Shown here: one piece after another, positions 11,993 to 63,593 of the stretch | Position numbering within the stretch: position 1 is the stretch's first letter | Layout: the number at the start of each line of letters is the position of its first letter | IMG/VR virus record: IMGVR_UViG_3300036768_001879 | Location: 3,441-67,440 of that record | Length of the DNA stretch: 64,000 bases | Strand: one strand, 5' to 3' | Origin: a virus | Position numbers and translations under genes: made by a program | The notes under the pieces: model-generated | The model's input: only the letters and a program-made list of their open reading frames with translations | Told to the model about the DNA's origin: nothing | Database searches by the model: none

Positions 11993-12934
11993 ATGGGCGA
12001 ACAATCAAAGATCGAATGGACTGACCACACCTTCAATCCGTGGACGGGCTGCGAGAAAGTCAGCCCGGCCTGTCGCAACTGCTACGCCGAGGCGCTCGCG
12101 CGCCGCGCGCCGCAAACCTTCGGGCAGTGGGGCGGCGATCAGCCGCGCCGCCTGACTTCAGCCGCAAACTGGCGGCTGCCGCGCCGCTGGAACCGGCAGG
12201 CGCAGGCGGCGGGCGAGCGCAGGCGCGTCTTCTGCGCTTCGCTGGCCGATGTGTTTGAGGATAAACCTGAACTGCGCCGCTGGCGGCGCGAGCTGTTCCG
12301 GCTCATCAGCGAGACGCCGCTGCTGGACTGGCTGCTGCTGACCAAGCGGGCCGACCGGATTGAGGATCTGATCTGGCAGGCGCTCGCGCCTGAGTACGAC
12401 GACATGGCCGAGCCGCACATCCTGATGGTCGAGCGATTCAGCGACCTCTTTCCGCACGTCTGGCTGGGCGCAACGGTCGAGGATCAGGAGCGCGCCCGCG
12501 AGCGCCTCACGGCGCTGCGCGAAACGTCGGCGCGCGTGCGCTTTCTCTCCTGCGAACCGCTGCTCGGGCCGCTCGATCTGACGGCGTGGCTCGCGCCGGT
12601 GCCGGAAATTGACTGGATCATCATTGGCGGCGAAAGCGGGCCTGCCGCGCGCCCGTTCCATCTCGATCACGCGCGCGCTCTCATCAGGCAGTGCCGCGCG
12701 GCGGGCGTGGCGGTCTTCGTCAAGCAGCTGGGCGCGGTGCCGGTGCTGCCCGCAGCCGACTGGGAGCGCCTGCGCCCGCAACCGCTCCTCGCCGCGCGCC
12801 ATCACTACCGGATTCCAGCCGGGTACGTGGCCCTGCGGCTGAACGATCCGCAGGGCGGCGACCCCGCCGAATGGCCCGCCGATCTGCGCGTGCGCGAGTT
12901 CCCCGCCCGCACGCGTCGGGAGGTTTCACTATGA
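11993..12934 (+). CDS. phage Gp37/Gp68 (DUF5131) protein
   Basis: SKIEWTDHTFNPWTGCEKVSPACRNCYAE, VFCASLADVF, LLTKR, FLSCEPLLG, IIGGESG. Confidence 0.9.
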   Translation: MGEQSKIEWTDHTFNPWTGCEKVSPACRNCYAEALARRAPQTFGQWGGDQPRRLTSAANWRLPRRWNRQAQAAGERRRVFCASLADVFEDKPELRRWRRELFRLISETPLLDWLLLTKRADRIEDLIWQALAPEYDDMAEPHILMVERFSDLFPHVWLGATVEDQERARERLTALRETSARVRFLSCEPLLGPLDLTAWLAPVPEIDWIIIGGESGPAARPFHLDHARALIRQCRAAGVAVFVKQLGAVPVLPAADWERLRPQPLLAARHHYRIPAGYVALRLNDPQGGDPAEWPADLRVREFPARTRREVSL

Positions 12935-13230
12935 TTCACGAACTGAAGATCCTGCCGGAATACTTTGCCGAGGTCGCAAGCGGCAGCAAGACCTTTGAAC
13001 TGCGCCGTAATGACCGGCAGTTTCGCGTCGGCGACGTGCTGCGGCTGTGCGAATACGAGCCGGAGTGCGGGCGTTACACCGGCAACCGTGTGGACGCGGT
13101 AGTGACTTCGCTGCTGCCTGGCGGCAGGTTCGATCTGCCGGACCATCTCTGCGTGATGAGCATTCGGGTGATCCGGCAGCCGCCCGGCCCTGCTGCGCCA
13201 GCCGCAATCATCAAACCCTTCAACCAGTGA
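12931..13230 (+). CDS. ASCH/DUF3850 domain protein
   Basis: HELKILPEYF...KTFELRRNDRQFRVGDVLRLCEY. Confidence 0.8.
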   Translation: MIHELKILPEYFAEVASGSKTFELRRNDRQFRVGDVLRLCEYEPECGRYTGNRVDAVVTSLLPGGRFDLPDHLCVMSIRVIRQPPGPAAPAAIIKPFNQ

Positions 13231-13237
13231 GGTGTGT

Positions 13238-13744
13238 ATGCACAATCATTTTTCTTCACCGTTCGACCAGCCGCTGCCCGCTCAGAGCGCCAGCGCCGCC
13301 AGCGCGCAGGTAGTCGTGACGCCCGAGCCGGTCGAACCGTCCGGCGCGCTCACGGAGAGCGAATTCGAGCGCCTGCGCTTTCTGCTGCCGCCCGATCTGC
13401 TGCTGAAGATCGAACGGCTCAATCAGCGCGCGCGCAGCCGCTTTCTGGTCTGCGGCGACGTAACGCTCGATCTTGAGGACGGCGTGCTTTTTGGCCGGGC
13501 CGGGCAGTGTCAGCTGACCCGCTATGAGAGTCGCCTGCTGCGCCTGCTGATGGAACAGCGCGGTCAGGAACTGACGGAGCTGCAGATTCTGCTCGCCGTC
13601 TGGAAGCGCGAACGCCAGAGCAATCTCGTCGCCGTCTACGTTTCCTATCTGCGCGCCCGGCTGCGCCAGGTCGGTTCGGCGCTCTCAATCACCAAACCGC
13701 GACACGGAGGCTACGCGATCACCGATGGCTCACGAAAACAGTAA
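13238..13744 (+). CDS. OmpR/PhoB-type winged-helix DNA-binding protein lacking a receiver domain
   Basis: GDVTLD..LTRYESRLLRLLM..ILLAVW..NLVAVYVSYLRARL..GGY. Confidence 0.75.
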   Translation: MHNHFSSPFDQPLPAQSASAASAQVVVTPEPVEPSGALTESEFERLRFLLPPDLLLKIERLNQRARSRFLVCGDVTLDLEDGVLFGRAGQCQLTRYESRLLRLLMEQRGQELTELQILLAVWKRERQSNLVAVYVSYLRARLRQVGSALSITKPRHGGYAITDGSRKQ

Positions 13745-13973
13745 TCCCGCGCCTTTCAGCGCCACGCACCCGCATTACATCGGGCAGTGCCCGGCCTGCG
13801 GCGATGGCGTGCGCGTGGATCCGAACGACCCTGAACGCGCCGTTCACAAACCGGCCAGCCTGGGCTGGCGCGCCACCTTCGGCGTGCGCCTGGTTGATGC
13901 TGACCGCCGCGATCAGACCGACCTGCTGGCGGCGGTGGCCGAGTACTGCCGCCAGCGCACGCGGCGCGACTGA
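13725..13973 (+). CDS. hypothetical protein
   Basis: GGAGG RBS, CPAC motif. Confidence 0.45.
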   Translation: MAHENSNPAPFSATHPHYIGQCPACGDGVRVDPNDPERAVHKPASLGWRATFGVRLVDADRRDQTDLLAAVAEYCRQRTRRD

Positions 13974-14006
13974 AGCGCGCCCGCAGTGTTGCTCATGCAC
14001 AACGTA

Positions 14007-14024
14007 TTATTGATTCTGGTAAAT
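14007..14024. promoter_or_regulatory. late-operon regulatory motif TTATTGATTCTGGTAAAT
   Basis: Exact 18-mer repeated at 24255-24272; both copies intergenic and upstream of late genes. Confidence 0.6.
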
Positions 14025-14137
14025 GATTTGTGGTAGGGTGAACGCGGTATTGGCATGAGACGTTCCCTTCCGGGCTGCACCCGCAGATCCGTGCAGCCCG
14101 GCTTTTCTTCGGCCCGATCAGACCAGGGAGAAAATCA

Positions 14138-14317
14138 ATGAACGATCCAAAGACCACGATGAGCGGCGTTATCACGTTCGTGGCGTGGCTGCTGGCGCAC
14201 TTCGGCATCGTCCTGCCGACGAGCGCCAAAGAACTGATTCTGGCACTCGGCGTGGCAGTCATCGGTTATCTGGCCCGCGACAGATCGAAGAATCCCGCAC
14301 AGCCGGAGCAGCCCTGA
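14138..14317 (+). CDS. putative holin (59 aa, two TM helices)
   Basis: Not in ORF track; MNDPKTTMSGVITFVAWLLAHFGIVLPTSAKELILALGVAVIGYLARD; GGGAG RBS. Confidence 0.6.
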   Translation: MNDPKTTMSGVITFVAWLLAHFGIVLPTSAKELILALGVAVIGYLARDRSKNPAQPEQP

Positions 14318-14634
14318 TGCGTCACCTGCTCGGACGATTGTTTTTGTTTCTGGCTGAAGCCGCCGACCCGCAGCTGCGGATTCAGCTGGAAGAGTACGAG
14401 CGCGAGCGCGATCAGCTGCTGCGCGAAATCAGCTTTCAGCAGGCGCAGGTTGCGGCGCTTGCCGCCCAGGCCGAACACCTCACGCATGAACGCGACGAAG
14501 CCCGTGAAAGAATCGCCTCACTCGAACGCGCCACGGCGCAGATTGCCGCGCGCCTGGGGCAGGATCACACTGCCGGTCGCAGCGATGCTGATGTGCTGCG
14601 TGGTGACCTGTTCGGCGCAGAACGCCCGCGCTGA
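14317..14634 (+). CDS. putative inner-membrane spanin-like coiled-coil protein
   Basis: TGATG coupling to the holin; hydrophobic N-terminus then coiled coil. Confidence 0.45.
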   Translation: MRHLLGRLFLFLAEAADPQLRIQLEEYERERDQLLREISFQQAQVAALAAQAEHLTHERDEARERIASLERATAQIAARLGQDHTAGRSDADVLRGDLFGAERPR

Positions 14635-15040
14635 ACCGGATCCTTCGAGCGAGGGCGCGCGCATCACTGAACGCCTGCCGGACGGCACGCTCATTGTGCT
14701 CGCTGGCGGACAGGAGTACCGCGCGCTGCCCGCCGCCCGGATGCGCGAACTCGACAACGCGCTTGAGGACAAGCGCCTGCTGGCGGAAAAGGTGGCGCTG
14801 CTTGAGGCGCAGCTGGCCGAGCGCCGCCGCGCCGCTGAACTCGACGCGCGCGAGCGCCAGCTGTACGCCAGCCAGCTGGCCGCCCGCGAACGCGAAACGG
14901 CGCTCTGGCGGCAGCTGTTTGAGAAGGCCGACAAGGCGGCTCGCCCTGGCCGCGTGCGCCGCTTTCTGGATCATCCGGTCGCGGCCATCCTGCTGGAAGC
15001 TGTCGTCCCGGTGGTTACGCTGGCCCTCAGAATGCGTTGA
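14585..15040 (+). CDS. putative outer spanin-like protein
   Basis: Overlaps previous gene; Cys-containing signal-like N-terminus, coiled coil, hydrophobic C-terminus; start uncertain. Confidence 0.4.
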   Translation: MLMCCVVTCSAQNARAEPDPSSEGARITERLPDGTLIVLAGGQEYRALPAARMRELDNALEDKRLLAEKVALLEAQLAERRRAAELDARERQLYASQLAARERETALWRQLFEKADKAARPGRVRRFLDHPVAAILLEAVVPVVTLALRMR

Positions 15041-15060
15041 AAACACAACCGGAGACTCCC

Positions 15061-15801
15061 ATGACTGAAAAAATGAAAACCGCCCGCGCCGCCGAACCAG
15101 CCCGGCTCAGTATCGAATACCTGCCGCTGCGCCGAATCCGCCCGCTCCCGCGCAACGCCAAACAGCACGACCTCGAAGCGATCATCGCTTCAATCAGCGA
15201 GTTCGGCTTTCTTGACCCTATCGGCATCAACAAGCGCACCGGACACGACCTTGACGGCAATGGCCGCCTGGAGGCGCTGCAGGAGATGGAGCGGCGCGGA
15301 CTGCCGCCGCCGCGCGGCATTGTGGCGGGCCGCAACGGCTGGGAAGCGCCCACCGTGGCGGGCATCAGCCTTGACGCAGCCCGCGAAGCCCGCGCCGCGC
15401 TGGCCCTGAACCGCACCAATGAACTGGGCGGTTTCGACGAGCAGCTGCTGCTTGAGATCCTGCGCGAATGCGAGCAGGAAGGCGGACTGGAAGCCACCGG
15501 CTACACGCCGGATTTCATCAACAGCCTGATGATGCGTCTTGACCCGCCCGCCGCCGCGCCCGCCGCCGCCGCGCCGGCAGTGTCGCTGGATCTGGTCAGC
15601 GCGCCGCCATCGCAGGTGCGGATGGTGCAGTTGTTCTACACCGCCGAAACGCAGCCCGTTCTGCTCAGTCGCGCTGCGGATCTGATTGACGCCGGTGCGG
15701 TGCTCGATGATGCGGGCGCGCCCGTGCGCGACCTCTCGGAACTCGTCTTCGCTTTGATTCGCAATGCTCACGCTCAACTTGAAACCGGTGCTGACCGATG
15801 A
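15061..15801 (+). CDS. ParB/Srx-like N-terminal domain protein heading the DNA-modification operon
   Basis: RNAKQHD..IIASISEFGFLDPI..LDGNGRLEAL..LALNRTNELGGFD. Confidence 0.75.
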   Translation: MTEKMKTARAAEPARLSIEYLPLRRIRPLPRNAKQHDLEAIIASISEFGFLDPIGINKRTGHDLDGNGRLEALQEMERRGLPPPRGIVAGRNGWEAPTVAGISLDAAREARAALALNRTNELGGFDEQLLLEILRECEQEGGLEATGYTPDFINSLMMRLDPPAAAPAAAAPAVSLDLVSAPPSQVRMVQLFYTAETQPVLLSRAADLIDAGAVLDDAGAPVRDLSELVFALIRNAHAQLETGADR

Positions 15802-16672
15802 AGAGACGGCGGCGCTGGCCGGACGACTGCTGCCCGCCAGCGCCGCGCCGCTCGTGCTGCGCGAAGACGCCGACGTCTGGCGGCCTGACGGCACACTGCT
15901 GCTGCGCTTCCGCAAGCGCGTCTTCGGGTTTGACGAATGCCGCACGGCCTGGCGCGCGCTGCGCGCCGCCGCCGTGACGACGGACAATCGCGGCGTGGCT
16001 GCCGGAGCCATTGACGATCCCGGCGCGACCGAGCGCCCGGCTGCCATTGTCACCGGCACGCGCTACCGCCCGCTCAAGCGCGATGGCACCGTCTCGAACA
16101 CCAACTTCGCAAAAAAGGTCAGGAGCGGCGTGATCGGGTTCTTTGACCGCAATGTGCGCATCCCCTACTGCCGCCAGACGGCCTTCAACATCAACCACGC
16201 TTCAAGGTTCGCCGCCGCGCTGCCGTTTATTCAGAGCGTCAGCCGGGTCTTCCAGCGCGAACTGCCGGAACGCTGGGCGGCGCAACGCGCCATCTGCGAT
16301 CAGACGCACCCGGATTTCCTGATTCCGGGTACCGTCTTTACCACCGTCACGGTCAATCGCAACTGGCAGACCGCCGTTCACAAGGATGCCGGCGACCTGC
16401 CGGAAGGCTTCGGCGTGCTGAGCGCCCTGAGCGTGGGCGATTACGACGGCTGTTACTTCTGTTTTCCGCAGTACGGCGTGGCTGCCGATCTGCGCACGGG
16501 CGATCTGCTGCTCGGCGATGTTCACGCCTGGCACGGCAACACGCCGCTGCGCGGGCGCGGCAATTACGAGCGCCTGAGCCTGGTGTTTTACTACCGCTCG
16601 CGCATGCGCGACTGCGGCAGCGCCGAAGCCGAACTGTCCCGCGCCCGCTCCGGCCTGCGCACCCTGCGATGA
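15764..16672 (+). CDS. TET/JBP-family 2-oxoglutarate/Fe(II) DNA pyrimidine dioxygenase
   Basis: CRQTAF, FTTVTVNRNWQTAVHKDAGD (HxD), WHGNT (distal His), RLSLVFYYR (2OG-binding Arg). Confidence 0.88.
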   Translation: MLTLNLKPVLTDEETAALAGRLLPASAAPLVLREDADVWRPDGTLLLRFRKRVFGFDECRTAWRALRAAAVTTDNRGVAAGAIDDPGATERPAAIVTGTRYRPLKRDGTVSNTNFAKKVRSGVIGFFDRNVRIPYCRQTAFNINHASRFAAALPFIQSVSRVFQRELPERWAAQRAICDQTHPDFLIPGTVFTTVTVNRNWQTAVHKDAGDLPEGFGVLSALSVGDYDGCYFCFPQYGVAADLRTGDLLLGDVHAWHGNTPLRGRGNYERLSLVFYYRSRMRDCGSAEAELSRARSGLRTLR

Positions 16673-17451
16673 AACTAACGCGCACATACCTGCAGCACCG
16701 CGACGTGACCGCCTTTGGCCGGGCGCTGCTGGCTGCGCGCGACCTGGATCCGGTCTATGAAGCCTTCGGCTGCGCCGGGTTCACGCGCGCCGAGCGTTCG
16801 GCGCTGGTGCTCGCCTACTCGTGGTTTTATCACGCGGGCGTGGCCGCCGACATTGCCGAGCAGCCGGACTTCTGGCGCGCCGCCCGGCTGGCCTACGAAG
16901 CCAATGCGCCGCGCGGCACCGAGCGCCGCCATTTTCGCGGCCCGCGCGGACTGGCGGCCATTGAATGGGTGCGCGCCCGTTTTGCCACGCCCGAAGCCGC
17001 GCTCGATGCGCTGCTTGCGCCGACCTTTGGCGCTTTCCGCGCGCGGGCGCTCGCCTGGCCGCAGACCGGCGACTGGATGGCCTTCAAGCTGGGCGACCTG
17101 CTTGAGCGCGTGCGCGGCGACCGCATCTCGTTTGACGATTGCGCCCTGGCCTTTTACCGCGAACCGCGCCGCGCTGCGCTGCTGGTGGCTGAAGAACGCG
17201 GCCTGACGGCGGGCGTTGACGCGCTGGCGCGGCTGATCGTGGCGGAGTTTGACGGCGTGGCTGCCCCGCCGCACGCCGACCGGCCCTGCGGCCTGCAGGA
17301 GATTGAAACCATGCTCTGCAAGTACAAGGCGCACCGGCACGGCTTTTATCCGGTTGGCAGGGATCGCGCTGAAATCGTGGCCGCGCTGCGCGCCCGGCCC
17401 GTGATGGGCGCTGGCGCCTTCCGCGCCCGGATGCTGGAGGTGCTCGCATGA
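16669..17451 (+). CDS. amino acid:DNA transferase (aGPT-PPlase clade 2-like)
   Basis: DLDPVY, WFYHAGVA, RGTERRHF, FKLGDLLER, QEIETMLCKYK motifs; operon context. Confidence 0.8.
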   Translation: MKLTRTYLQHRDVTAFGRALLAARDLDPVYEAFGCAGFTRAERSALVLAYSWFYHAGVAADIAEQPDFWRAARLAYEANAPRGTERRHFRGPRGLAAIEWVRARFATPEAALDALLAPTFGAFRARALAWPQTGDWMAFKLGDLLERVRGDRISFDDCALAFYREPRRAALLVAEERGLTAGVDALARLIVAEFDGVAAPPHADRPCGLQEIETMLCKYKAHRHGFYPVGRDRAEIVAALRARPVMGAGAFRARMLEVLA

Positions 17452-18350
17452 AGCCGGTTCACCTGTCCGGCATGGGGATGCTCGGCTGCGCAGCGGCGCT
17501 GGCGCTCGATGCTGCCGGGCGCGCCTTCACCTGGGACGATGCGGACGCGGTCAGCGCCTGGCCTGCAAGCAGCGGGCAGATTGTCACCGACGCGGACTCG
17601 CCGCAGCTGGAAGCCGCCCGCGCCGCGTGGGAGGCCCGCCAGACCGGCCTTGCCCCCGATGCGCCCGCTTACGCGCCGTTCCTGCGGCGCGCCGCCCGCT
17701 GGCTGCTGCTGAGCCGCGCGCCCGCCGCCGCCCGCGCCCAGGCGCGCCACGCCGCCGCCTGTGCAGGCAGGTTCTGGCGCGCTGGCGATGACGATCTCTT
17801 TCTGGATGTGCCCGGCTTTGTCGGCAGCGTCCGCGCCCGCTACGCGCACCTGCGGCGCACCGGCCCGCCCGCCGACGCCCGGCCCGTCACCGCGCACGGC
17901 TTTGCCCGCGCCCGCTGCTTCCTGTGGGGCTGGAGCGCCGCCTGCGCCGAACTCTGCCTGCCTGCCGGACTTGAAGCCGCCAGCCTCCCGCTGCCCCCAG
18001 CGCTGCATGTGCGCCCGCACCGCTTTATGAGCGCCTGGGTGGTGCCGCACGGTCGCGCCGGATACCTGATCGGCACGTCCTACGTGCGCCAGACCGAGCC
18101 GCGCCAGCCGCAGCACCCCGAACAACTCATCGCCCGCACGCTCGAACGGCTGGGCAGTTACGGCGTGCGCGTTGCGGCCACCGGCCCGGTGCGCTACGGC
18201 TGGCGCCCGCTGGCCGTCAGGGGCGAACCCCAGGTCACCGTCGCGCGCCACAACGGACACCTGATGCTGCCCGCGCTCGGCATGTACGGCGTCACGCTGA
18301 GTCCGCTGGCTGCAGCCGCGCTGCTCCGGGCGCTGGAGGATGAGCCGTGA
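17448..18350 (+). CDS. FAD-dependent oxidoreductase (DAO/glycine oxidase-like)
   Basis: N-terminal GMGMLG dinucleotide-binding motif, SAWPASSG, YGWRP, C-terminal GMYGVTLSP. Confidence 0.7.
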   Translation: MKPVHLSGMGMLGCAAALALDAAGRAFTWDDADAVSAWPASSGQIVTDADSPQLEAARAAWEARQTGLAPDAPAYAPFLRRAARWLLLSRAPAAARAQARHAAACAGRFWRAGDDDLFLDVPGFVGSVRARYAHLRRTGPPADARPVTAHGFARARCFLWGWSAACAELCLPAGLEAASLPLPPALHVRPHRFMSAWVVPHGRAGYLIGTSYVRQTEPRQPQHPEQLIARTLERLGSYGVRVAATGPVRYGWRPLAVRGEPQVTVARHNGHLMLPALGMYGVTLSPLAAAALLRALEDEP

Positions 18351-18898
18351 AAAGACTGATCGGTATTGGCGGCCCGCCCGGAGCCGGAAAAAGCCACCTG
18401 GTACAGTGCGCGCTGGCGGCGCTCGACCGCCACCGCTTTGTCATGCAGCAGGAAGGCACGATCCAGTACCTGCAACACCTGCGCCTGCCGCTGATCGTGC
18501 TGGGCAGCTACGCGCCCGGCGATGCCACGCCCGGCACCGACCGCCTGCATCTGTGCGTCCACCCGGAAGCCAAACGGTTCCTGGCGCGCCACGCCGCCGC
18601 CAGCGCCGATCTCTGCTGCCTGTTTGAAGGCGACCGCTTCTGCAATGAGCCGTTCCTTGCCGCCGCCGCCGCCTGGTTTGACGATGTGCGCCTGCTGCTG
18701 CTCGATGTGCCGCGCGCGGTGCGCGACCGCCGCTGCCAGACACGCGGTGCGCGGCAGGCTGAAACCTTTCTGCGAGGGCGGGAAACCAAATACCGCAATC
18801 TGGCCCGTCTGAGCTGCGCCGAAGTGCTGCCCAATTTCACCGCCGCGCACGCCGACGCCCTGCTTGAGCGCCTGCTGCGGCTGATTGAACTGCAATGA
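18347..18898 (+). CDS. P-loop kinase, 5-hydroxymethyluracil DNA kinase-like
   Basis: GGPPGAGKS Walker A, GTDRL, LFEGDRF, RCQTRG; context next to the AADT gene. Confidence 0.78.
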   Translation: MKRLIGIGGPPGAGKSHLVQCALAALDRHRFVMQQEGTIQYLQHLRLPLIVLGSYAPGDATPGTDRLHLCVHPEAKRFLARHAAASADLCCLFEGDRFCNEPFLAAAAAWFDDVRLLLLDVPRAVRDRRCQTRGARQAETFLRGRETKYRNLARLSCAEVLPNFTAAHADALLERLLRLIELQ

Positions 18899-19725
18899 AT
18901 TACCGGATTGTCATTCCGACACACCGCCGCGCCGCCACGCTGGGCGCGCGCACCCTGAAATGGCTGCGCGCCTGCGGCGTGCCCGATGCGCGCGTGACCC
19001 TGCTGGTCAGCGACGAAGCCGACGCCGAGGCTTATCGCGCGGCCTACCCGGACTGCTGCGTGCCGACGGTGCCGGCCTTTGACTGTCTGCGCGACAAACT
19101 GAACTACCTGCACCGCACGGCCCGGCCCGGCGAACGCGTGCTGGTCATCGAGGACGATCTGACCGGACTGCTCCGCAAGCGCGACAACCGCGCGCCGCTC
19201 ACGCACGACCTTGACGCGCTCGTGGCGGACGGCTTTGCCGCCTGCGAGCGCTACGGGACGGCGCTCTGGGGCGTCACGCCCACCAACAACGGACTCTTTA
19301 TGAAGGAGCGCGCCAGCGCCGAACTGCGCTTCTGTGTCGGGTACTGCTACGGCTTTGTCGGAACCGGCGACCCGCGCCTCGAAGTCACGCTCAACTTCAA
19401 ACACGACTATGAACGCACGCTGCTTTACTTCATTCGCTATGGCGCGGTGGCGCGCCTGAACTACGTGGGCGTTGAAACGCGCAGCTTCAGCGCGCCGGGC
19501 GGGCTTCAGGAGTATTCCGCGGAAGCCCGCCGCGCCGCCGAACTGGCCAGCAACGAATACCTGCTGCGCCGTTACCCGCATCTGGTGGCGCGCGCGGCGC
19601 GCCTGAATCGCACGCTCAACGCTTACACCGAACTTCGTCTGAATGCCCGCGCCAGCCGCGATACCGACTGGATGGCGCTGCAAAGGCTGCACGATGCTGC
19701 AAATGGTTTTCCCGGCTGCTGGTAA
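18895..19725 (+). CDS. TET/JBP-associated GT-A glycosyltransferase (TAGT/GREB1-like)
   Basis: IVIPTHRRA, VLVIEDDL, KHDYERTL, APGGLQ motifs. Confidence 0.78.
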   Translation: MNYRIVIPTHRRAATLGARTLKWLRACGVPDARVTLLVSDEADAEAYRAAYPDCCVPTVPAFDCLRDKLNYLHRTARPGERVLVIEDDLTGLLRKRDNRAPLTHDLDALVADGFAACERYGTALWGVTPTNNGLFMKERASAELRFCVGYCYGFVGTGDPRLEVTLNFKHDYERTLLYFIRYGAVARLNYVGVETRSFSAPGGLQEYSAEARRAAELASNEYLLRRYPHLVARAARLNRTLNAYTELRLNARASRDTDWMALQRLHDAANGFPGCW

Positions 19726-21478
19726 GGGCGAACGTTTCAGGCGCGCCGGTTGGCGCGACGACAAGCCCTTTATCCGGATCAATGGCCTGACGCTGCTTGA
19801 ACGCGCGCTGGCGGCTGCCGCCTGCCCGCCCGAGGTGCGCGTCCTGGTGGCGCTCGGCGACAAGTACCGCAACACGCCGCTCGTTGACCGGCTGGCCGCG
19901 CAATGGCGCTTTGAACCGGTCTTTGTGCCGCCCACCGGGAGCGTCGTTGACACGCTGCTGGCCTGCGCCAGCCGTCTTGACCCGGAACTGCCGCTCGTCT
20001 GCCACGACGCCGATATTCAGCTGCCGCTCGGCTGGCCGCTCCCGCCCGGCAACGGCCTCTGGTGGACTCCCGACGAAGGACCGCTGGCGCAGTACAGCTA
20101 CCTGCGCGCCGATCAGGCCGGGCGTCTGCTTGAGATCCGCGAAAAACAGCGCATCTCGGAGCGGGCCTGTTGCGGCGTCTACAAGTTTGAGCGCGCGGGC
20201 GAATTCCTTGCCGCCGCCCGCGCGACCACCGCGCCCGGCGAACGCTACCTCTCGCACGTCATTGCCCGGATGCTCGCTGCAGGCGCTACCTTTCACGCCT
20301 GGCCCGCTACCGGCTGGATCAACAACGGAACTCCGCAGCAGCTGGCCCTGAATGCCGCCGCCCGGCCCGCCCGGCCTCATACATTCTGCTTTGACCTCGA
20401 TGGCACGCTCTGCGGCCCGCCCGCCACGCCCGGCGATTACAGCACCTGCCGCCCGCTGGAACGCAACATCGCCTGGCTGCGCGCCCTGCACGCCGCCGGA
20501 CACCGGATCATCATTCATACAGCCCGCCGCATGCTCACGCATCGCGGCAATGTGCAGGCCGTCGTTGACGAGATTGGCGAACTGACGCGCCAGCAGCTGC
20601 GCGATTTCGGCGTGCCTTACCACGAACTCGTCTTCGGCAAGCCTTACGCCGATTTCTACGTTGATGACAAAGCCGTCAATGCCGAACTCGACCCGGAGCG
20701 CGAAACCGGCTTTTACGCCAGCACCGGCCTCGCGCCCAGGCACTTCAATCAGATCACCCAAACCGCGCGCGGGCTGCGCAAGACCGGCGACCTGCGCGGC
20801 GAACGGTTCTTCTATGAGAACTGCCCGGAGGACTTCAGGCCGTTTCTGCCCCTCATTCACGACGCCTCGGACGCGGCCATCGAAATGCAGCGCCTGCCCG
20901 GCCCCACTTACGCGCAGGCCCTCGTCAGCAATGAACTCGCGCCCGCTGACCTGCGCGCCGCGCTCGATGCGCTCGCCGTGCTGCATCGCCAGCCGGACGC
21001 GGGCGCTGACACCGCCAGCCTCTATCTGGAAAGGCTCGAAGCCCGCTACGCGCAGGCTCCGGCGCTCTACGCCGCCCTGCCACAGAGCGCCCGCGTCCTT
21101 GAAGACCTGCGCGCCTTCTTTGAAGGTTACGCCTTTGAGCCGCGCCGGATGCACGGCGACCCGGTGTTCGGCAACATTCTGTTCGGCCCGCGCTTCATTG
21201 ATCCGCGCGGGCGCGTCGGCGCGCAGCTGACGCTCTGCGGCGACCCGAACTATGATCGCGCCAAGCTCCTGCAGTCGCTCACTGGCTACGATGCCGTCCT
21301 GCTCGGACGCGCGCCAGCCCGGCGCACCGTTGAACGCCTGATTGCTGAACTCAATCCGCAGCCGGACGTCTGGCGCATTACGCTGGCGCATTACTTCTGT
21401 CTGCTGCCGCTGCACACCGAACTGCATCAGGAGTTCTGGCAGATCGCCCTTGAACTTCATCGCCAGTGGTTCGGCTGA
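19694..21478 (+). CDS. trifunctional nucleotidyltransferase - HAD phosphatase - APH/choline-kinase-like protein
   Basis: FPAAGKGERF..KPFI (NTase); CFDLDGTL, IHTAR, FGKPYADFYVDDK (HAD); HGDPVFGNIL..FIDPRG (kinase). Confidence 0.82.
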   Translation: MLQMVFPAAGKGERFRRAGWRDDKPFIRINGLTLLERALAAAACPPEVRVLVALGDKYRNTPLVDRLAAQWRFEPVFVPPTGSVVDTLLACASRLDPELPLVCHDADIQLPLGWPLPPGNGLWWTPDEGPLAQYSYLRADQAGRLLEIREKQRISERACCGVYKFERAGEFLAAARATTAPGERYLSHVIARMLAAGATFHAWPATGWINNGTPQQLALNAAARPARPHTFCFDLDGTLCGPPATPGDYSTCRPLERNIAWLRALHAAGHRIIIHTARRMLTHRGNVQAVVDEIGELTRQQLRDFGVPYHELVFGKPYADFYVDDKAVNAELDPERETGFYASTGLAPRHFNQITQTARGLRKTGDLRGERFFYENCPEDFRPFLPLIHDASDAAIEMQRLPGPTYAQALVSNELAPADLRAALDALAVLHRQPDAGADTASLYLERLEARYAQAPALYAALPQSARVLEDLRAFFEGYAFEPRRMHGDPVFGNILFGPRFIDPRGRVGAQLTLCGDPNYDRAKLLQSLTGYDAVLLGRAPARRTVERLIAELNPQPDVWRITLAHYFCLLPLHTELHQEFWQIALELHRQWFG

Positions 21479-21494
21479 ATGAACTGTTTGACCG

Positions 21495-22208
21495 ATGATG
21501 AAAGAACGCCGTAAACAATCAACGCCCGCGCAGCCCTGGGAACGCCTCCCGGATGAATCCGCGCCCGCCTGGGCTGCCTTTGTCGAGTACCGCGAACTCG
21601 GCCCTGAACGCAGCACGGAAGCAGTCGCCAGAAAGGTGGCAAAAAGTTGGCAGCTGATCCGGCGCTGGTGCGCCCGCCACGACTGGGTGGCTCGCACTGC
21701 CGCCTACGACTCGTGGCTGGCCGAACTCCGGCAGCAGGAAGCCGAAAAAGCCATCCGCGAGGAACAGCGCAGGTGGGCCGAGCGCGAACGCCAGCAGCGC
21801 GAGGAACTCTGGGAAACGCGCAACCTGCTCATTCAGAAGTACCGCGAAATGGCGCAGATGCCCATGCGCGAAATCACCCGCGTTGCGCCCGATCCGGAAG
21901 CGCCCGATCAGCTGGTGCAGGTCACGATCAAGCCCGTGCGCTTCAACGCCAATTCGCTGGCGCATCTGGCGCGCGCCGTGGCTGAGGTCGGCAACCTGGC
22001 CGTTGAGCGCCCGACACAGCACGCGCAGATTGATCTGAACGCGCAGGTCGGCTTCAGAGGCATTGAAACGCGCCAGCAGGCCGAGGCTTACCTGAAACAG
22101 TTTGCCGAGCGCCTGCGCCAGCAGCTCAACATCAGCGCCGAGGAAGCCGCGCAGCTGGCCCGCGATGCCTGCCCGGCTGAAACCGCCCTGCTCGAAATGC
22201 CCGAATAA
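21495..22208 (+). CDS. putative terminase small subunit
   Basis: WERLPDESAPAWAAFVEYRELGPERS..RWCARHDWVARTAAYD HTH; upstream of TerL. Confidence 0.65.
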   Translation: MMKERRKQSTPAQPWERLPDESAPAWAAFVEYRELGPERSTEAVARKVAKSWQLIRRWCARHDWVARTAAYDSWLAELRQQEAEKAIREEQRRWAERERQQREELWETRNLLIQKYREMAQMPMREITRVAPDPEAPDQLVQVTIKPVRFNANSLAHLARAVAEVGNLAVERPTQHAQIDLNAQVGFRGIETRQQAEAYLKQFAERLRQQLNISAEEAAQLARDACPAETALLEMPE

Positions 22209-22221
22209 CAGGAGAACAGCT

Positions 22222-22470
22222 ATGGACGACATCAGCGCGATCAATTCCTTCGACTTTGAGTTCAGAGAAGGCGGCTATGTCGGGTGGTGCCATTGCGGCG
22301 CGCAAAACGGCTGGCGCTCGACTGTCGACCTTGACGACGACTGCGGCGGCACGGGCGTCCTCTACTGCTGGTGCGGAGGCGATCTGTGCGTCTGTCACAA
22401 TCACGGCGAAACTCCGTGCTTCGGCTGCGAGGAATGCGAGGGCGATGACGACGATGATTATTGCGATTAA
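22222..22470 (+). CDS. small acidic Cys-rich protein
   Basis: AGGAG RBS; about 10 Cys in 82 aa. Confidence 0.55.
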   Translation: MDDISAINSFDFEFREGGYVGWCHCGAQNGWRSTVDLDDDCGGTGVLYCWCGGDLCVCHNHGETPCFGCEECEGDDDDDYCD

Positions 22471-22488
22471 CAGCCGCGCGAAACTCCT

Positions 22489-24129
22489 GTGACCTTCACT
22501 GAATCACAACCAGACGCCGCGCCCGACGCCGACCTGCGGCGGCGCGTGCAGGCCTTCAAGCTGAAATTCGACGACGACCTCTGCGCCGGACGCATTCCGT
22601 TTGCGCCCGCCGTCGCGCCGCTGCCCTCGCAGTGGATCGAGCAGAACGTCTACGATTACACGACCGTCAACCTTGAGAACTTCGATTTCCAGCGCGCCGC
22701 CCGCCTGCGCCTGACCGCGCGCCAGCGGCGCATCATTGACCACGTGCTCGCGCCGCGCGCCGACGGACGCCTGCGCTATGACACGGTGGTCTGGAGCGAA
22801 CCCAAGAAGTCCGGCAAGACGATGGTCGCCTCGGCGGTGGGCGCCTACTTTGCCGCCGTGATTGACCCGCCCAATGTGATCTACTGCGTGGCCAATACCG
22901 AACATCAGTCGTCGAGCCGCATCTTCGGGCAGATGGCTCCGACGCTCTACCGGCTGGCGGGCCGCTTCCCCCGCGCGCAGACCGCACGCCCGATGGTGCG
23001 GCTGCCGAGCGGCACCGTGGTGCGCGCTCTGCCCAACAACTACCGCGCCGAAGCGGGCGGCAACTACGGCCTCACGCTCTGGTCGGAGGCCTGGGCGATG
23101 AAGCACGAAGCCGATCAGCGGCTGTGGGATGAACTGGTGCCGGTGCCGACGCGCCGCATCTCGCTGCGCTGGGTCGAAACCTACGCCGGATTCGTGGACG
23201 AGGACACGCCGCTGCGCCGGTTGCATCAGCAGATCTTCACGGACTTCGATGAGCGCGCTCTGTGCGACGGCGTGCGCCGCGTGCCGGAACTCTCCGACCT
23301 GCCCTGCTACGAACTGCCCGCCGCGCGGCTCTTTGTTTACTGGTCGCACGACCGGCTGATGCCCTGGCAGCAGGGCGAGGCGGGCCGCGAGTATTACGCC
23401 GCGCAACGCCTTGAACTGACCAGCAACGCCTTCCGTCGCCTGCACGAAAACTGGTTTGTGCAGTCGGTGGGCAACTTCCTCGACGAGGAACTCCTGCGCG
23501 ACAGCCTGCGGCTGTCCGGCCCGCTCGCCGTGCCGATGGTCTTCGCCGCCGACGCCTCGCAGCGTCACGACACAACGGCGCTGGTCGGCGCGCGCCGCGT
23601 GACGGGCGCAACCGGCGATCTGTACCAGACCGGCTACGTGCGCGTCTGGAATCCGCAGGGCGAGGACATTGATCTCGAAGCCACGCTCGCCGACACGGTG
23701 CGCGAACTCTGGCGCAACGGGCTGTTGCGCGAACTCTGGTACGATCCCTTCCAGCTGCATCAGGTGATGCTCAAGCTGCGTCAGGAAGGGCTGCCGGTCT
23801 TTGAGTTCAATCAGGGGCAGGAACGCATCAGGTCGGACACGTTCCTCTCGCTGCAGTACCGCCAGCGCAACATCGAGAACTACCGCGACGATGATCTGCT
23901 CTCGCACCTGCGCGCGGCGCGCGCCCAGGAGATCGAGGGACAGAAGATTCGCCTCGTTAAAGGCACGCTCAGCAGCGCCAGCCTGATTGACGCCGCCGTG
24001 GCGCAGTCAATGGCCGTTTACAAGGCCAGCCTGCAGCCGCCCGAACAGCCGCAGGCCGTGGCTTCGGATTACTACTCCGACCCGGAAGACGCGCTGCGCT
24101 GGGATCTGCTCACGTCCGACATTGCCTGA
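22489..24129 (+). CDS. terL: terminase large subunit
   Basis: PKKSGKT Walker A; FRRLHENWF linker; nuclease FAADAS..DTTAL, YDPFQ, IDAAVA. Confidence 0.85.
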   Translation: MTFTESQPDAAPDADLRRRVQAFKLKFDDDLCAGRIPFAPAVAPLPSQWIEQNVYDYTTVNLENFDFQRAARLRLTARQRRIIDHVLAPRADGRLRYDTVVWSEPKKSGKTMVASAVGAYFAAVIDPPNVIYCVANTEHQSSSRIFGQMAPTLYRLAGRFPRAQTARPMVRLPSGTVVRALPNNYRAEAGGNYGLTLWSEAWAMKHEADQRLWDELVPVPTRRISLRWVETYAGFVDEDTPLRRLHQQIFTDFDERALCDGVRRVPELSDLPCYELPAARLFVYWSHDRLMPWQQGEAGREYYAAQRLELTSNAFRRLHENWFVQSVGNFLDEELLRDSLRLSGPLAVPMVFAADASQRHDTTALVGARRVTGATGDLYQTGYVRVWNPQGEDIDLEATLADTVRELWRNGLLRELWYDPFQLHQVMLKLRQEGLPVFEFNQGQERIRSDTFLSLQYRQRNIENYRDDDLLSHLRAARAQEIEGQKIRLVKGTLSSASLIDAAVAQSMAVYKASLQPPEQPQAVASDYYSDPEDALRWDLLTSDIA

Positions 24130-24254
24130 CGGCGCGCCCGCCCGGATGCGCCACCGTTCACCCGTCACTGACCGCGCGCCAGCGCGCTGGCAGCGGCGCT
24201 CGCCTTCAGCCTTTCCTAACGCTCAACGCCCGCCTTTTTTTGACTTCACAAACG

Positions 24255-24272
24255 TTATTGATTCTGGTAAAT
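24255..24272. promoter_or_regulatory. second copy of TTATTGATTCTGGTAAAT
   Basis: Identical to 14007-14024. Confidence 0.6.
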
Positions 24273-24337
24273 ACGATGTTGCCCGCACGCAATAAGACTG
24301 AACGAACAGTCAGCTTCACTGACAAACGCCAACTTCA

Positions 24338-24865
24338 ATGCCTGTCCTGTCGCCGCAGCGCATCCCGGTTCTGACAAGCACGCAGGTGCAGTTCGCCACG
24401 ACTGCGCCCGCGCCGGTGGTGTGGGACGCCGACAACGGCACGATCAGCCCGAACGGTCTTTACACGGCACCCGAGACGCCCGGCGTGGCGCTGGTGTCCT
24501 GCACCTCAAACGGCGAAACCCTGCTCTCGACGGTCTTCATCTGCGAGGAATTCCGCTGGAGCGGGCAGTTCGGGCAGGGCGGCACGCTGGTCGTGCCCGG
24601 CAAGGTTTCGCTGGCGATGGATCGCAGTCGGCAGGCGCGGCGGCGCGGACAGATGCGCGCTACCTGGAAGCTCCAGATGCGGCTTGAGGACTTCGACTTC
24701 CGCGAATTCATGGACTTCTACGACGCCACGCATCTGCGCCGCCCGTTCTGGTACGACGACGGGCAGACCGAAGTGAAGGGCTTCTTCTGGTTTGACAGCG
24801 ACGTTGAGTTCACCTACGCGCAGGTGCTGACCTGGGACGTCCAGGTTTCAATCCATCAATTCTGA
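24338..24865 (+). CDS. putative distal-tail/minor tail protein with N-terminal Ig-like segment
   Basis: GTISPNGLYTAP; FMDFYDA..RPFWYDD..FDSD pattern of lambda gpM/DUF2460-like proteins. Confidence 0.5.
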   Translation: MPVLSPQRIPVLTSTQVQFATTAPAPVVWDADNGTISPNGLYTAPETPGVALVSCTSNGETLLSTVFICEEFRWSGQFGQGGTLVVPGKVSLAMDRSRQARRRGQMRATWKLQMRLEDFDFREFMDFYDATHLRRPFWYDDGQTEVKGFFWFDSDVEFTYAQVLTWDVQVSIHQF

Positions 24866-25343: not shown

Positions 25344-28300
25344 ATGAATCCCGTTACCGTCAACGTTCAGAATGCTGCGCTGCCCGTCACCATTGGCGTG
25401 CCGTTTGCGCAGTCCGAAAACCTGCTCTCAACCGCCGCGCTGCGCGTCAGAAACCCGTCCGGCACGGTCATTGCGGGCAGCGGCGCGTTTGAAATCCTCG
25501 CCCGCTGGGGCGGGCTCAAAACCGACACCGCCAGGCCGATAATGATCGCGCTCGTGTCGTTCAAGCCTTCAACCGGCGTCGCCGGTAACTACACCATTGA
25601 CGACAGCAACGCCAGCTTCACGCCCGCGCCGATCACCGTCACCAGCAATCCAGGCGACTACCGCGTCCAGAACGGCGCGATTGATGTGCGGATCAGCAAG
25701 ACGTCCACCGATCTGCTCACCTCTTTTCAGATCAGCGGCAGCGAGCAGCTGGCTGCCGGATCAAAGCCGCGCCTGAACGCGGTGGCGTCGGCCAGCGCCA
25801 TCAGGACCACCGGCGTTGCTGACGTCGGCACCAACACGATCACCGTCACTTCGACCACCGGCCTGTCGGTCGGCACGCAGATCAGGCTCAAATGGGACGG
25901 CCCGCTGCTCTACATTCAGGGCGGCGCGGTCGTGGCGAGCGGCGATTACGGTTTCTACTCCAACTCGCTGACGCCCAAGCGCACCTTCTGGATCAATCGC
26001 GGCGGCGCAAATCAGGAATCGCTGACGGCGGATTTCGTCTATCCCGGCTCAGGCACCTCAGAGTGGTACTACGTCAGCGCGCCTGCCAATTCGCACAGCG
26101 CCGGCGAACTGGTCGAGGACAAGTCGCTGCTCGACGACTTCAACGCCAGCGGCGCTTACACAATCAACGCCATCAACGGCAACACGCTCACGCTCAATCG
26201 CAATCTCGGCGTGCGCGTGATCGAGAACACGCAGCTTGAAGTGCAGGGCGGCGGCACCGGCCCGGTGACTGCGCCCTTCCAGCCCGCCAGCTGCAGCGTT
26301 GAACGGCAAACCGATAATTACGTGGTCATCAGGCAGGTCGGCCACTTCACCAGCAACGTCAATCCGCTGGTTGAAGTCACCGTGCGCTGGCACATCTACA
26401 ACGGAATGTCGTGGCTGCGCGCGCAGGTGCGCCTGAACAACTACTCCGCCGACACCAGTGTCACTGCCACCGATGCGCCCTTTGATGAACTGCGCATGGA
26501 CGTGCCAACGGCCAGCGCCGCGTCGGGCAGCGATGCGGTGTCGGACAACGCTACAGCCGTCAGCCGCGTCAACGCCGGAACCACAACCGTGACGCTCTCG
26601 GCGGGTTCGTTCCAGATTTCGGTGCCGGAGTTTGCCGAGAAGTACCCGAAGAGCATCGCGGGCGATGCGGGCGGTTTTCACTTCGGCATCTTTCCGGCTG
26701 CGACAAATCAGCAGCTGCCCGGCGACCGCGCCATCTCGCACGAATTCTATCTCGGCAATTCAACCGCCACTCCAGCCACGCTCACCAGCCGCCCGACCAA
26801 CTGCGCGCTGCAGCCTTCGTATGTCGTCAACACGCAGGCGCACCGCGCCGTGACAACCGTGGCGCAGACTTACACGGCGGCGCAGTTCGGCGGCGACTCC
26901 GAGATGGCTGAAGCCGCCAACCGCAACGAGGATGCGCTGGCCGTGATCTATGACGTCTCAAAGGCGGTCGCCTACGGCTCGCAGCCCGCGCAGTCGGCAA
27001 AGGAGTTTCGCAATCGCGGCGAGTACGGCGACGGTTACGGCTGGACGATCTTCGGCACCTTCCCCTGGCAGGACAATCCGCGCTGCTACAACCACTACGA
27101 CACGCAGTTTCACACGCTCGTGCAGTATCTGCGCACGGGCGATCTGCGCGCGCTGCAGCTCGGCTCCGAGTGCGCCCGCTACATGGCCGATTACGGGATG
27201 ATCCAGTCGCGCATCTTCGGCGGCGGCAACCCGTACAACCAGTATCAGGGGCTGGCGCGCTTTGAGGATGAAGACCGGCGCGGGCCGGGCTTTCTCTCGC
27301 ACACGTGGCACGAAGGGCTGTGGCTCTACTGGGCCGTCACCGGCGATCAGGCGGTGTTTGACTCAGCCATGCTGACCATTGAAGGCAGGGATCAGACCGG
27401 CGCTACGCAACCCGGCTGCCTGAAGGCTGCCGACTGGTATCCGGCTGGCACGGGCCTCTATCCCGGCTCCTACTACGGACACGGCGCGAGCTTCAACATC
27501 TGGACGGGCAATGACGGCACGCGCTGGACCGGCTGGCCCATCCTCGGCCTGATGGCTGCTTATCGCTACACCGGGCGCAGCGACCTGCTCACGCTGGCCG
27601 GGCAGTATGCCAGCTGCTTCACGCAGACTGAAGCGGCGCAGGGCAATCACGGCTACTTCATTCAGGACGGCAGCTTCGCTACAGCCAATTCGGCTGATCC
27701 GCCGGGCAACGCGCCGAGCTTCATTCAGTACGGCTACACGCTGATCGGCATGATCGAGTACTGGAAGCAGACCGGCGACCAGACGGTGCGCGATTACATC
27801 AGCCGCGTCGGGCAGATGCTGCTCAAGGGCGATTCGCAGGCGGCGCAGGCGCGCAAGGATAACGCGCTGAGCGGCGGCGTGAGCTTCGCCGGACAGTATC
27901 TGGCTATTGAAGGCAACTACTTCTGGTGGCCGCTCGCGCAGACGACGCTCGCCTCCGGCATCAACAACACGGTGACTTCGATCACGCTCACCGACGCCTC
28001 GAAATTTCCGTTCTGGGGCTCAATCGCCATTGATGACGGCATCAACATCGAATACTGCACGGTCAGCAATCGCAGCGGCAACACGCTCACTGTCGCGCGC
28101 GGCAAGTACGGCTCGACGGCGCGCACGTGGAGCGCGGGCGTGACGGTCTACGTGCAGGCGTGGGACGGCGACGGGCCGACGAGCGGGCGCGCCATTGACT
28201 ACCTGCCCTGCATCAGCACGGCGGCCAAAATTACCGGCGACACCGGACTGCAGAACCTCGCCAAACGCATCTTCAAGGACACGGCCTTCTATTTCGGGCA

Positions 28301-57972: not shown

Positions 57973-57985
57973 AAGGAGAACGAAA

Positions 57986-63376: not shown

Positions 63377-63593
63377 ACCGGTAACAGCCGGGCCGGGCGG
63401 GTGCTGCGATACCCCGCCCGGCCTGACCGAACGCACGCGCCGCCGCTGGTTTGAACTGCGCCCGTCGCAGCGCCGGAGAATTCTGGTCGCGCTGCGGCGC
63501 TACGAAACCGCCTGCGCGATGCTTGATGTTGACCCTGACCGCGAGGAATGGGTTGCCGACGCCATTGCATGGCAGAAAGGACAGGACAGATGA
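63366..63593 (+). CDS. hypothetical protein
   Basis: Coupled ORF between the DUF3150-like and Rad52-like genes. Confidence 0.4.
   Translation: MNSKPVTAGPGGCCDTPPGLTERTRRRWFELRPSQRRRILVALRRYETACAMLDVDPDREEWVADAIAWQKGQDR

Follow-up and report, generated by a model that had tools for sequence, protein, structure and literature searches.

In base J synthesis, thymine is hydroxylated by JBP and a glucosyltransferase then acts, and phage pathways made up of a C5 methyltransferase (C5-MT), a TET enzyme and a glycosyltransferase, said to have been described by Burke et al. in 2021, reportedly yield glycosyl-5-hydroxymethylcytosine (glycosyl-5hmC). The thymine hydroxylase of kinetoplastids is JBP1/2 (PMC13229309). 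In the Pseudomonas phage PaMx11, a thymidylate-synthase homologue supplies 5-hydroxymethyluracil (5hmU) ahead of replication, and 5-NmdU and 5-AcNmdU are formed with a kinase (5-HMUDK), a glycinyltransferase (gp46, PUGT), an FAD amine oxidase (gp47, NGTO) and an acetyltransferase (gp48) (PMC8989533; Wen et al. 2024, PMC11472151). Here we describe a seven-gene operon at positions 15061-21478 of a 64,000-nucleotide stretch of viral DNA (the window; bases 3441-67440 of the 67,440-base IMG/VR provirus record IMGVR_UViG_3300036768_001879). The operon encodes a ParB-like protein, a TET/JBP-family dioxygenase, an amino acid:DNA transferase (AADT), an FAD enzyme, a P-loop kinase, a TET-associated glycosyltransferase (TAGT) and a fusion of nucleotidyltransferase (NTase), HAD phosphatase and APH-type kinase domains (NHA). 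It is a five-gene amino cassette with a two-gene sugar cassette appended to it, placed before the terminase genes.

The initial annotation of this DNA inferred that a TET enzyme feeds thymine hypermodification. This is not a new principle: the proposal dates from 2021 and the experimental demonstration from 2025-26. Lee et al. (2021, PMC8989533) described TET_JBP genes that replace the dUMP hydroxymethylase beside thymidine hypermodification genes, as part of a modular gene pool, and O'Toole et al. (PNAS 2026, PMC13229309; preprint 10.1101/2025.08.14.668559) found ParB-dependent thymine dioxygenases (T-dioxygenases) 'consistently linked' with P-loop kinases and AADTs. The neighbours of T-dioxygenases in PMC13229309 include glycosyltransferase (GT), APH, HAD and terminase genes, with APH on ∼0.3% and HAD on ∼0.2-0.6% of contigs (Dataset S10), and ParB and APH are among the neighbours of GT/5mYOX genes (5mYOX, 5-methylpyrimidine dioxygenase) in a further preprint (10.1101/2023.12.21.572611). 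These statements, and those made below from the same sources, concern the parts of the papers and datasets that were available; in those parts, O'Toole et al. did not determine the end products of ParB-TET-kinase-AADT clusters. Neither the product of a TET, AADT and GT cluster nor the role of an NHA-type fusion was found in the literature, mostly open-access, and the figures or supplementary information of PMC13229309 could depict a similar neighbourhood.

The operon shares with the clade C1 clusters of O'Toole et al. a ParB-like gene without an evident DNA-binding domain directly upstream of a clade-C1-type dioxygenase, 47-53% identity to 5mYOX175, 172 and 182, a kinase and an AADT in the cluster, and an adjacent terminase. 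It differs in adding the TAGT, the putatively sugar-nucleotide-making NHA and a distinct FAD oxidase family. With base J it would share the post-replicative logic of T to 5hmU to glycosyl-5hmU, by a TET/JBP-family oxidase and then a glycosyltransferase, whereas the window has a phage operon, predicted to be ParB-dependent, with its own donor-sugar enzyme and a competing amino-acid branch. With the phage glycosyl-5hmC pathways it shares a TET-associated GT-A-type glycosyltransferase, but it has no C5 methylase and its dioxygenase is of the T-oxidising clade.

Two cassettes joined in one operon

The operon is translationally coupled. Seven ORFs on the + strand fill 15061-21478, every junction overlaps, and the terminase genes come next. 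The 4-nt stop/start overlaps listed in the initial annotation could be read directly from the sequence (ATGA at 16669, 17448 and 18895; GTGA at 18347). Longer overlaps join the ParB-like gene to the TET gene (38 nt; ATG 15764, stop 15799-15801) and the TAGT gene to the NHA gene (32 nt, taking the NHA start as ATG 19694). The NHA ORF is open from ATG 19643, and the start at 19694 gives a 594-aa form (P0122) that aligns with the N-termini of homologues. At the other end, the longest ParB-like ORF begins at TTG 15037, but ATG 15061 was preferred because GGAGA lies 8 nt before it. The NHA stop is 16 nt ahead of the ATG (21495) of the terminase small subunit gene (TerS), and no terminator-like sites were found on the + strand within 13000-24500.

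The merged gene order is not an assembly chimera, since contigs assembled independently from a run of another study (X3) cross the junctions. They cover 14800-15942 with 0 differences, 15969-17610 with 1 difference, spanning the TET/AADT/FAD junctions, and 17759-22400 with 0 differences, spanning FAD/kinase/TAGT/NHA/TerS. Runs X4 and X5 gave short exact pieces of the stretch only. Many short joints were also seen, with GC-rich sides of 20-25 letters, and were taken as cross-matches from other organisms.

Related loci were collected in four sets: 80 around relatives of the TET protein (a scan with the single protein gave no loci, and an alignment query gave the 80), 80 around NHA, 79 new loci around TAGT, and 17 from genome assemblies. 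All ORFs of these loci were searched with HMMs iterated from the window proteins (E ≤ 1e-5). Many loci end at contig ends, and absences are to be read as lower bounds. Around TET, present in all 80, a ParB-like gene was found in 75 of these closest viral loci, a kinase in 30, an AADT in 29, a TAGT in 10 and fused NHA in none. The 79 TAGT loci gave a TET gene in 59, a ParB-like gene in 49 and fused NHA in 6, with no AADT or kinase. The 80 loci around the fused NHA had ParB-like, TET and TAGT genes in 2 each and again no AADT or kinase, while the genome-assembly loci (TET in all 17) had a ParB-like gene in 4, an AADT, a kinase and a TAGT in 3 each, and no fused NHA. AADT and TAGT occurred together in none of the loci of the TET, TAGT and NHA scans and in 2 of the 17 genome-assembly loci.

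Each cassette thus recurs alone. The TET gene, where present in a TAGT locus, is usually adjacent to it (20 of the 79 show none within the locus DNA), at least one NHA-type domain is found in 16 of the 79, and an NTase, HAD or APH domain lies beside TAGT in 7 of the 8 best blastp relatives of the window's TAGT. Locus L123 has the order ParB-TET-TAGT-NHA-HTH-TerL, ending as in the window, and L090 has ParB-NHA-TAGT-TET. The order ParB-TET-AADT-DAO-kinase occurs in L029, with a DAO of another clade. The FAD family of the window was in 0 of the 258 loci of these first four scans, and a targeted scan for it, queried with a 12-sequence alignment, gave five further viral loci. Three of these (L260, L261, L263) have ParB-TET-AADT-FAD-kinase in the same order as the window and the short L262 has AADT-FAD-kinase, so that the family lies between AADT and kinase in four of the five. 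None of the five holds a TAGT or NHA, and the TAGT model (A4) matched 0 of five AADT-FAD-kinase records (two of them complete), in a search run without a positive control.

The unusual part of the window is the merger of ParB-TET-AADT-FAD-kinase with ParB-TET-TAGT-NTase/HAD, and the two-branch combination is rare. AADT and TAGT were together in 2 of the 258 other loci that gave any match (L164 and L165), both from genome assemblies and neither with NHA. L164 has the order N6-methyltransferase, ParB, TET, kinase, AADT, TAGT; its TAGT gave no blastp match to that of the window and its AADT is 28% identical. These lineages being unrelated to those of the window, the mergers are independent events. 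L165 has the order GNAT, TAGT-like, amidoligase, phosphatase, ParB, AADT, DAO, kinase, TET, and is a PaMx11-like acetyl-aminomethyl set driven by TET, with extra enzymes.

Some of the related loci carry other genes near their cassettes. L165 (3222-10100) lies on a contig binned in a Parcubacteria metagenome-assembled genome (MAG), and its phosphatase is of the low-molecular-weight type. A ThyX gene lies at 10448-11503 of L260, a complete 100-kb phage, 2 kb downstream of the ParB-TET-AADT-FAD-kinase cassette, and a GT2-family glycosyltransferase gene at 10574-11476 of L261, 2.8 kb downstream of the same cassette. Between the AADT and ParB genes of the related hypermodification cluster in L010 (4663-7684) are a GIY-YIG nuclease and domains of the Hint/intein type. 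In the cultured Pelagibacter phage HTVC112P (L002, 6375-8597), an FkbM-family methyltransferase gene comes after a ParB-like and a TET gene (the latter 45% identical to that of the window), a neighbour that suggests another fate of 5hmU.

Thymine oxidation and the amino branch

The ParB-like protein (15061-15801, +) has a ParB N-terminal-type domain and a C-terminal region. It matched phrog_620 ('ParB-like partition protein', 2.3e-27) and no Pfam family at E ≤ 0.01, HTH_ParB included, and the HMM iterated from it also matches the canonical ParB_N protein of the window (6237-8159). It is 26% identical (E 2e-13), including a C-terminal 'RMV' stretch, to ParB175, encoded beside 5mYOX175 in L013. 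As with the partners of clade C1 enzymes, its gene adjoins that of the dioxygenase, and in the protein a ParB domain at the N-terminus is followed by a C-terminal domain, with no HTH detected.

The dioxygenase (15764-16672, +) is of the ParB-associated clade C1 type. It matches Tet_JBP (PF12851) at 4.9e-22 and 78.3 bits, against a cut-off of 34.9, and the iron and 2-oxoglutarate residues H206, D208, H254, H257 and R270 are invariant across 31 aligned dioxygenases. Over its full length it shares 49% identity (E 8e-111) with the protein of L013, identified as 5mYOX175 through Dataset S11, whose printed entry agrees with it at the N-terminus. Identity is 53% to the L029 protein and 47% to the L023 protein (from the 5mYOX172 and 5mYOX182 contigs, respectively), and the assignment of the enzyme to clade C1 rests on pairwise identity to these tested members. 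In E. coli, 5mYOX175 gave 0% 5hmU alone and ∼1.8% with ParB175; 5mYOX182 alone gave 0% among the rows listed, and 5hmU with ParB182; 5mYOX172 was measured without ParB only, with 0 and 0.39% 5hmU (Dataset S2, PMC13229309). One subclass of phage thymine dioxygenases requires a ParB homologue, and the ParB-dioxygenase complex could not be trapped in that study (PMC13229309). The claim that the dioxygenase oxidizes thymine in DNA is thus backed by its identity to an enzyme that made 5hmU only with its ParB, and we infer that the window's enzyme is a ParB-activated thymine-to-5hmU oxidase acting on DNA.

Searches for rival sources of the substrate were all empty, so that thymine is the likeliest substrate, with the incompleteness of the record as the chief reservation. 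All 67,440 bases of the record gave no match to PF00303, PF02511, PF00145, PF00476 or PF01555, and none to a ThyA-like protein, ThyX, a C5-MTase, an N6/N4-MTase or a family-A polymerase, so that the absence of a thymidylate synthase-like gene and a C5 methylase, first noted for the window, extends beyond it. Five related records were also without PF00145 and PF00303. The ParB-TET-AADT-FAD-kinase cassette is present in two of these (G001 and G005), which are 100% complete and end in direct terminal repeats.

The P-loop kinase (18347-18898, +) belongs to the 5hmU-DNA-kinase family (Ploopntkinase3, PF18751; 2.3e-8, 34.2 bits against a cut-off of 27). Its Walker A motif is intact (GPPGAGKS, residues 9-16), and homologues adjoin AADT in L029, L006 and L010. 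It would convert 5hmU to 5-phosphomethyl-dU.

The AADT (16669-17451, +) matches ADDT (PF18724; 4.7e-10, 40 bits against a cut-off of 26.2) and, in the PDB, 8z2m (the PaMx11 gp46 glycinyltransferase, 4.5e-32) and 25qc (7.5e-33). The residues named for gp46 in PMC11472151 were mapped through a HMMER alignment to 8z2m_A. Eleven of the 12 are identical (Asp24, Tyr47, Tyr51, Glu92, Trp146, Lys150, Glu243, Thr244, Cys247, Asp262 and Glu265), and the sole change is Lys261 to Arg. The nucleophile Cys247, the metal ligands Glu243/Thr244 and the glycine-holding Trp146/Lys150 are thus kept, which strengthens the analogy to PaMx11 drawn in the initial annotation for the kinase, AADT and flavin enzyme. The AADT is probably glycine-specific, joining 5-phosphomethyl-dU and Gly to give N-alpha-glycinylthymidine (hereafter N-alpha-GlyT).

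The fourth gene (17448-18350, +), whose assignment was the weakest of the seven, encodes, by predicted fold, an FAD-dependent amine oxidase of the DAAO/glycine-oxidase (GR2) type. The N-terminus carries GMGMLG (GxGxxG, residues 8-13), and HMMER gave 173 representative proteins of the family at E ≤ 1e-3, nearly all of ∼270-340 aa. An AF2 model built from a 60-sequence alignment had a pLDDT of 92.8. With Foldseek, this model matched IdaA (iminodiacetate oxidase), DAAO and glycine oxidase at ∼1e-12 to 1e-11, and PaMx11 gp47/NGTO (8z79_A) at 4.8e-9, with TM 0.62/0.65 and the lowest rmsd among the matches listed. VIA gave Z scores of 23.1 for DAAO (274 residues), 22.6 for glycine oxidase and 20.7 for MnmC (274 residues). 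From its context, the enzyme would be the N-alpha-GlyT oxidase that yields 5-aminomethyl-dU.

The oxidase domain of MnmC converts cmnm5U to nm5U in tRNA. The FAD enzyme shares the fold of MnmC and would share its formal chemistry, in which a glycine-derived carboxymethyl group is removed and an aminomethyl group is left on uracil C5, but MnmC has a tRNA substrate, is fused to a methyltransferase and shows only ∼18% sequence identity to it.

Set beside the PaMx11 pathway, the amino cassette has the same kinase, glycine-type AADT and FAD amine oxidase, with an AADT that matches gp46 and an oxidase of the same GR2 fold and similar short length. It differs in that a TET enzyme is present and no thymidylate-synthase homologue was seen, the operon has no acetyltransferase, and the oxidase lacks sequence-level similarity to gp47.

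The sugar branch and its relation to the amino branch

The TAGT (18895-19725, +), of GT-A type, matches PF20691 at 3.8e-7 and 30.7 bits, above the cut-off of 27.5, and its DxD pair, D87-D88, is invariant in 11 sequences. It is predicted to glycosylate 5hmU in DNA. The family assignments of the initial annotation were correct here and elsewhere in the operon, with Tet_JBP, ADDT, Ploopntkinase3 and TAGT all above cut-off and the ParB-like protein recognised through phrog_620.

The last gene (19694-21478, +) encodes the three-domain NHA fusion, identified by profile and motifs as a sugar-1-phosphate nucleotidyltransferase, a HAD phosphatase and a kinase of APH/choline-kinase fold. The kinase domain matched Pfam APH at 3.9e-7 and the HAD domain phrog_1238 (2.3e-21) and TIGR01689 (1.3e-12). 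The NTase domain is weak in Pfam, with IspD (22.4 bits against 27) and NTP_transf_3 both below cut-off. Against the PDB, a profile of 23 homologues matched the NDP-sugar pyrophosphorylase 4evw at 1.2e-30, GlmU and ManC (mannose-1-P guanylyltransferases) at ∼1e-13 and IspD-type enzymes at ∼1e-5, and its HAD part matched 1xpj at 3.4e-24 and 9iqw, a 'capsule biosynthesis protein', at 3.4e-16. The motifs G-x-G-x-R-F...K, D-x-D-x-T, T-A-R, G-K-P...D-D and H-G-D-x-x-x-x-N are kept in the 23 sequences. A further 31 NHA proteins were found at E ≤ 1e-5, mostly of 580-680 aa, with 29-36% identity along the whole protein. The kinase-domain model (pLDDT 94.5) gave tied fold matches to maltokinase, APH(3') and choline kinase (∼1e-5 to 1e-6), and the family of this domain is viral, with some bacterial NTP_transferase+APH fusions as structural neighbours. 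Examples of the NHA family, which was collected as L084-L163, are L138 (a 617,453-base record), L093, L100 and L102.

NHA probably makes the NDP-sugar donor for TAGT, from a sugar or a sugar phosphate. A polyol-phosphate, which the initial annotation named as the alternative to a sugar, is less likely, since the best match of the NTase is not to cytidylyltransferases of the IspD/TarI type, which activate polyol-phosphates (∼1e-5, against 1e-30 to 1e-13 for sugar-1-phosphate enzymes).

In the MupP/AmgK/MurU salvage of Pseudomonas, a HAD phosphatase, an APH-fold anomeric kinase and a uridylyltransferase take a sugar phosphate to an NDP-sugar, and heptose pathways share this sugar-phosphate-to-NDP-sugar logic. 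Likened by description, NHA has the same three enzyme classes in series, but with all three fused in one 594-aa viral protein.

Gene order, coupling, families, catalytic residues and kinship to tested enzymes suggest the following chemistry. The ParB-like protein would activate the dioxygenase which, judging from tested homologues, would oxidize thymine in double-stranded phage DNA to 5hmU. In the amino branch, as family, residues and synteny suggest, the kinase would phosphorylate 5hmU, the AADT would swap the phosphate for glycine to give N-alpha-GlyT, and the FAD amine oxidase would release glyoxylate and leave 5-aminomethyl-dU. In the sugar branch, family and conserved pairing suggest that NHA would phosphorylate a sugar at its anomeric position, remove a second phosphate and transfer a nucleotidyl group to yield an NDP-sugar, and TAGT would glycosylate the 5hmU left by the kinase, so that a glycosyl-5hmU resembling base J results. 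In packaged DNA, thymine would then be modified in two ways, with little 5hmU left free.

The reading we favour, to which we give about an even chance, is thus post-replicative modification of thymine in which 5hmU feeds two parallel fates, 5-aminomethyl-dU and glycosyl-5hmU. Parallel fates are favoured because each cassette is self-sufficient elsewhere, the nearest TAGTs being without kinase and AADT and the nearest AADT-FAD-kinase sets without GT. Since each cassette occurs without the other, the ancestral acceptor of the TAGT lineage is most simply 5hmU. We speculate that capping of all 5hmU makes biological sense.

Several points weigh against this reading. The record is 77% complete by CheckV and cut at its right end, and a hydroxymethylase or C5 methylase could be encoded by the host or by the part that is missing. 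With the tested relative 5mYOX175, 5hmU rose no higher than the ∼1.8% given above. For the FAD enzyme, the Pfam DAO match (4.4e-4) is at 20.3 bits, below the cut-off of 27.9, and covers the C-terminal third only, so that the FAD oxidoreductase of the initial annotation stands on fold and falls short in Pfam. Neither the single protein nor a 60-sequence profile matched any PDB sequence, gp47/NGTO included, and BLASTP gave no significant match to the DAO genes of L029 or L006. NGTO was rank 50 with Foldseek and absent from the 50 VIA matches listed. NHA has no nearby TET in 78 of its 80 loci, mostly low-GC and giant-virus contigs, and so the family is not confined to DNA modification. Competition of a kinase with a glycosyltransferase for one hydroxyl seems wasteful, so that an ordered, sequential scheme keeps some room, and AADT and TAGT have been joined independently at least twice more (L164, L165), so that the combination itself may have a function.

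In such a sequential route, TAGT would glycosylate N-alpha-GlyT or 5-aminomethyl-dU, for example with an N-linked sugar on the amine, to give one compound base. The seven genes form one translationally coupled unit, in which the kinase and TAGT genes overlap in an ATGA, and L164 (ParB-TET-kinase-AADT-TAGT) joins AADT and TAGT lineages unrelated to those of the window, so that the combination arose more than once; kinase and GT would also not contest the same hydroxyl. These at least three independent joinings, together with the competition otherwise expected, add some weight to the route. We nevertheless consider it unlikely: the closest relatives of TAGT are in loci without AADT or kinase (0 of 79) and the closest AADT-FAD-kinase cassettes are without TAGT, and with the cassettes found apart in this way, neither enzyme set gives any hint of an altered acceptor. 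A limited literature search also found no report of a TAGT-family enzyme acting on an amine. That the sugar is placed on the amine or glycinyl group to give a glycosylated aminomethyl-uracil, undescribed in any DNA, and that the mergers in L164 and L165 reflect selection for it, is a rather unlikely extension of this idea.

Another explanation is that the TAGT-NHA pair acts on something other than DNA, or than the intermediates of this pathway, for instance a glycan of the host, a protein of the virion or a small molecule, and that the DNA receives 5-aminomethyl-dU alone. The 78 NHA loci mentioned above also lack ParB and TAGT nearby, and are mostly low-GC contigs, many with giant-virus MAG names, and the 20 TAGT loci without TET point the same way. 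Against this, TAGT is above the cut-off of the TET-associated family, 59 of the 79 related TAGT loci do hold TET, the genes of ParB, TET, TAGT and NHA form compact loci in L123 and L090, and both genes of the pair are part of the coupled operon in the window. We regard this explanation as quite improbable. A substrate of 5-methylcytosine (5mC), methylated by an enzyme of the host or of the missing part of this incomplete record and oxidized to 5hmC before decoration, is highly improbable: clades A and B of the phage TETs consist of 5mC dioxygenases and 5mYOX97 and 5mYOX176 also oxidize 5mC in vitro (PMC13229309), but PF00145 is absent from the record and the five related ones, T-dioxygenases of clade C1 are the nearest relatives with tested activity, the residues by which PaMx11 gp46 holds the thymine-derived base are retained in the AADT, and only 6% of the surveyed 5mYOX pathways co-occur with a C5-MT (PMC13229309).

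The phage and the significance of the operon

The operon belongs to a temperate phage: the first 3.4 kb of the record, before the window, hold a tyrosine integrase and an HTH regulator. The record has a G+C content of ∼65% and nearly all of its long ORFs are on the + strand. The window stretch was found in contigs of public runs labelled microbial mat metagenome. Searches for cultured relatives among 50,697 phage records gave no match, either with the operon by megablast or with the terminase large subunit (TerL) by tblastn, and the relatives from genome assemblies, which are MAG contigs of many phyla, indicated no host.

Upstream of the operon, a Prim-Pol domain fused to a DnaB-like helicase domain (3541-5613, +) is the sole replication enzyme seen; the family-A polymerase absent from the whole record is PF00476. 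The replication block also has a second, canonical ParB of 606 aa (6342-8162, +; ParB_N 3.8e-26, HTH_ParB 1e-9), which is distinct from the operon's own short ParB-like protein. A well conserved DUF5131 (Gp37/Gp68) protein (11993-12934, +; 9.4e-70, and phrog_2045 at 2e-81) is encoded 2 kb upstream of the operon and is followed by a Trans_reg_C regulator (13232-13744).

Downstream are TerS (21495-22208, +; phrog_6299, 4.1e-18) and TerL (22489-24129, +; phrog_9, 2.5e-21) and, beyond these, a Mu-type portal, an S49 protease and a capsid protein. With the terminase genes directly downstream, the operon is placed in the late/packaging block. Between TerL and the portal is a 1784-aa ORF (25344-30698, +) with six IPT/TIG domains (2.7e-58), unusual in its position and size. 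The window also encodes a protein with a STIV B116-like domain (57911-58732). The last ORF, of the Rad52 family (63548-64000), is cut by the end of the record, and since it runs out of the record, the provirus is truncated and part of the phage is missing.

The operon is less surprising than was held at first, and its value is that of a well-chosen candidate and not of a new principle. Experimental proof of post-replicative thymine hypermodification started by a TET enzyme is very recent, and these seven genes are a compact and apparently complete test case. They bear on whether one intermediate receives two decorations or a new compound base is made, on which sugar the widespread viral NTase-HAD-kinase fusion makes, and on whether the NGTO reaction is carried out by a divergent FAD family. 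Such enzymes are potential tools to mark thymine or 5hmU in DNA.

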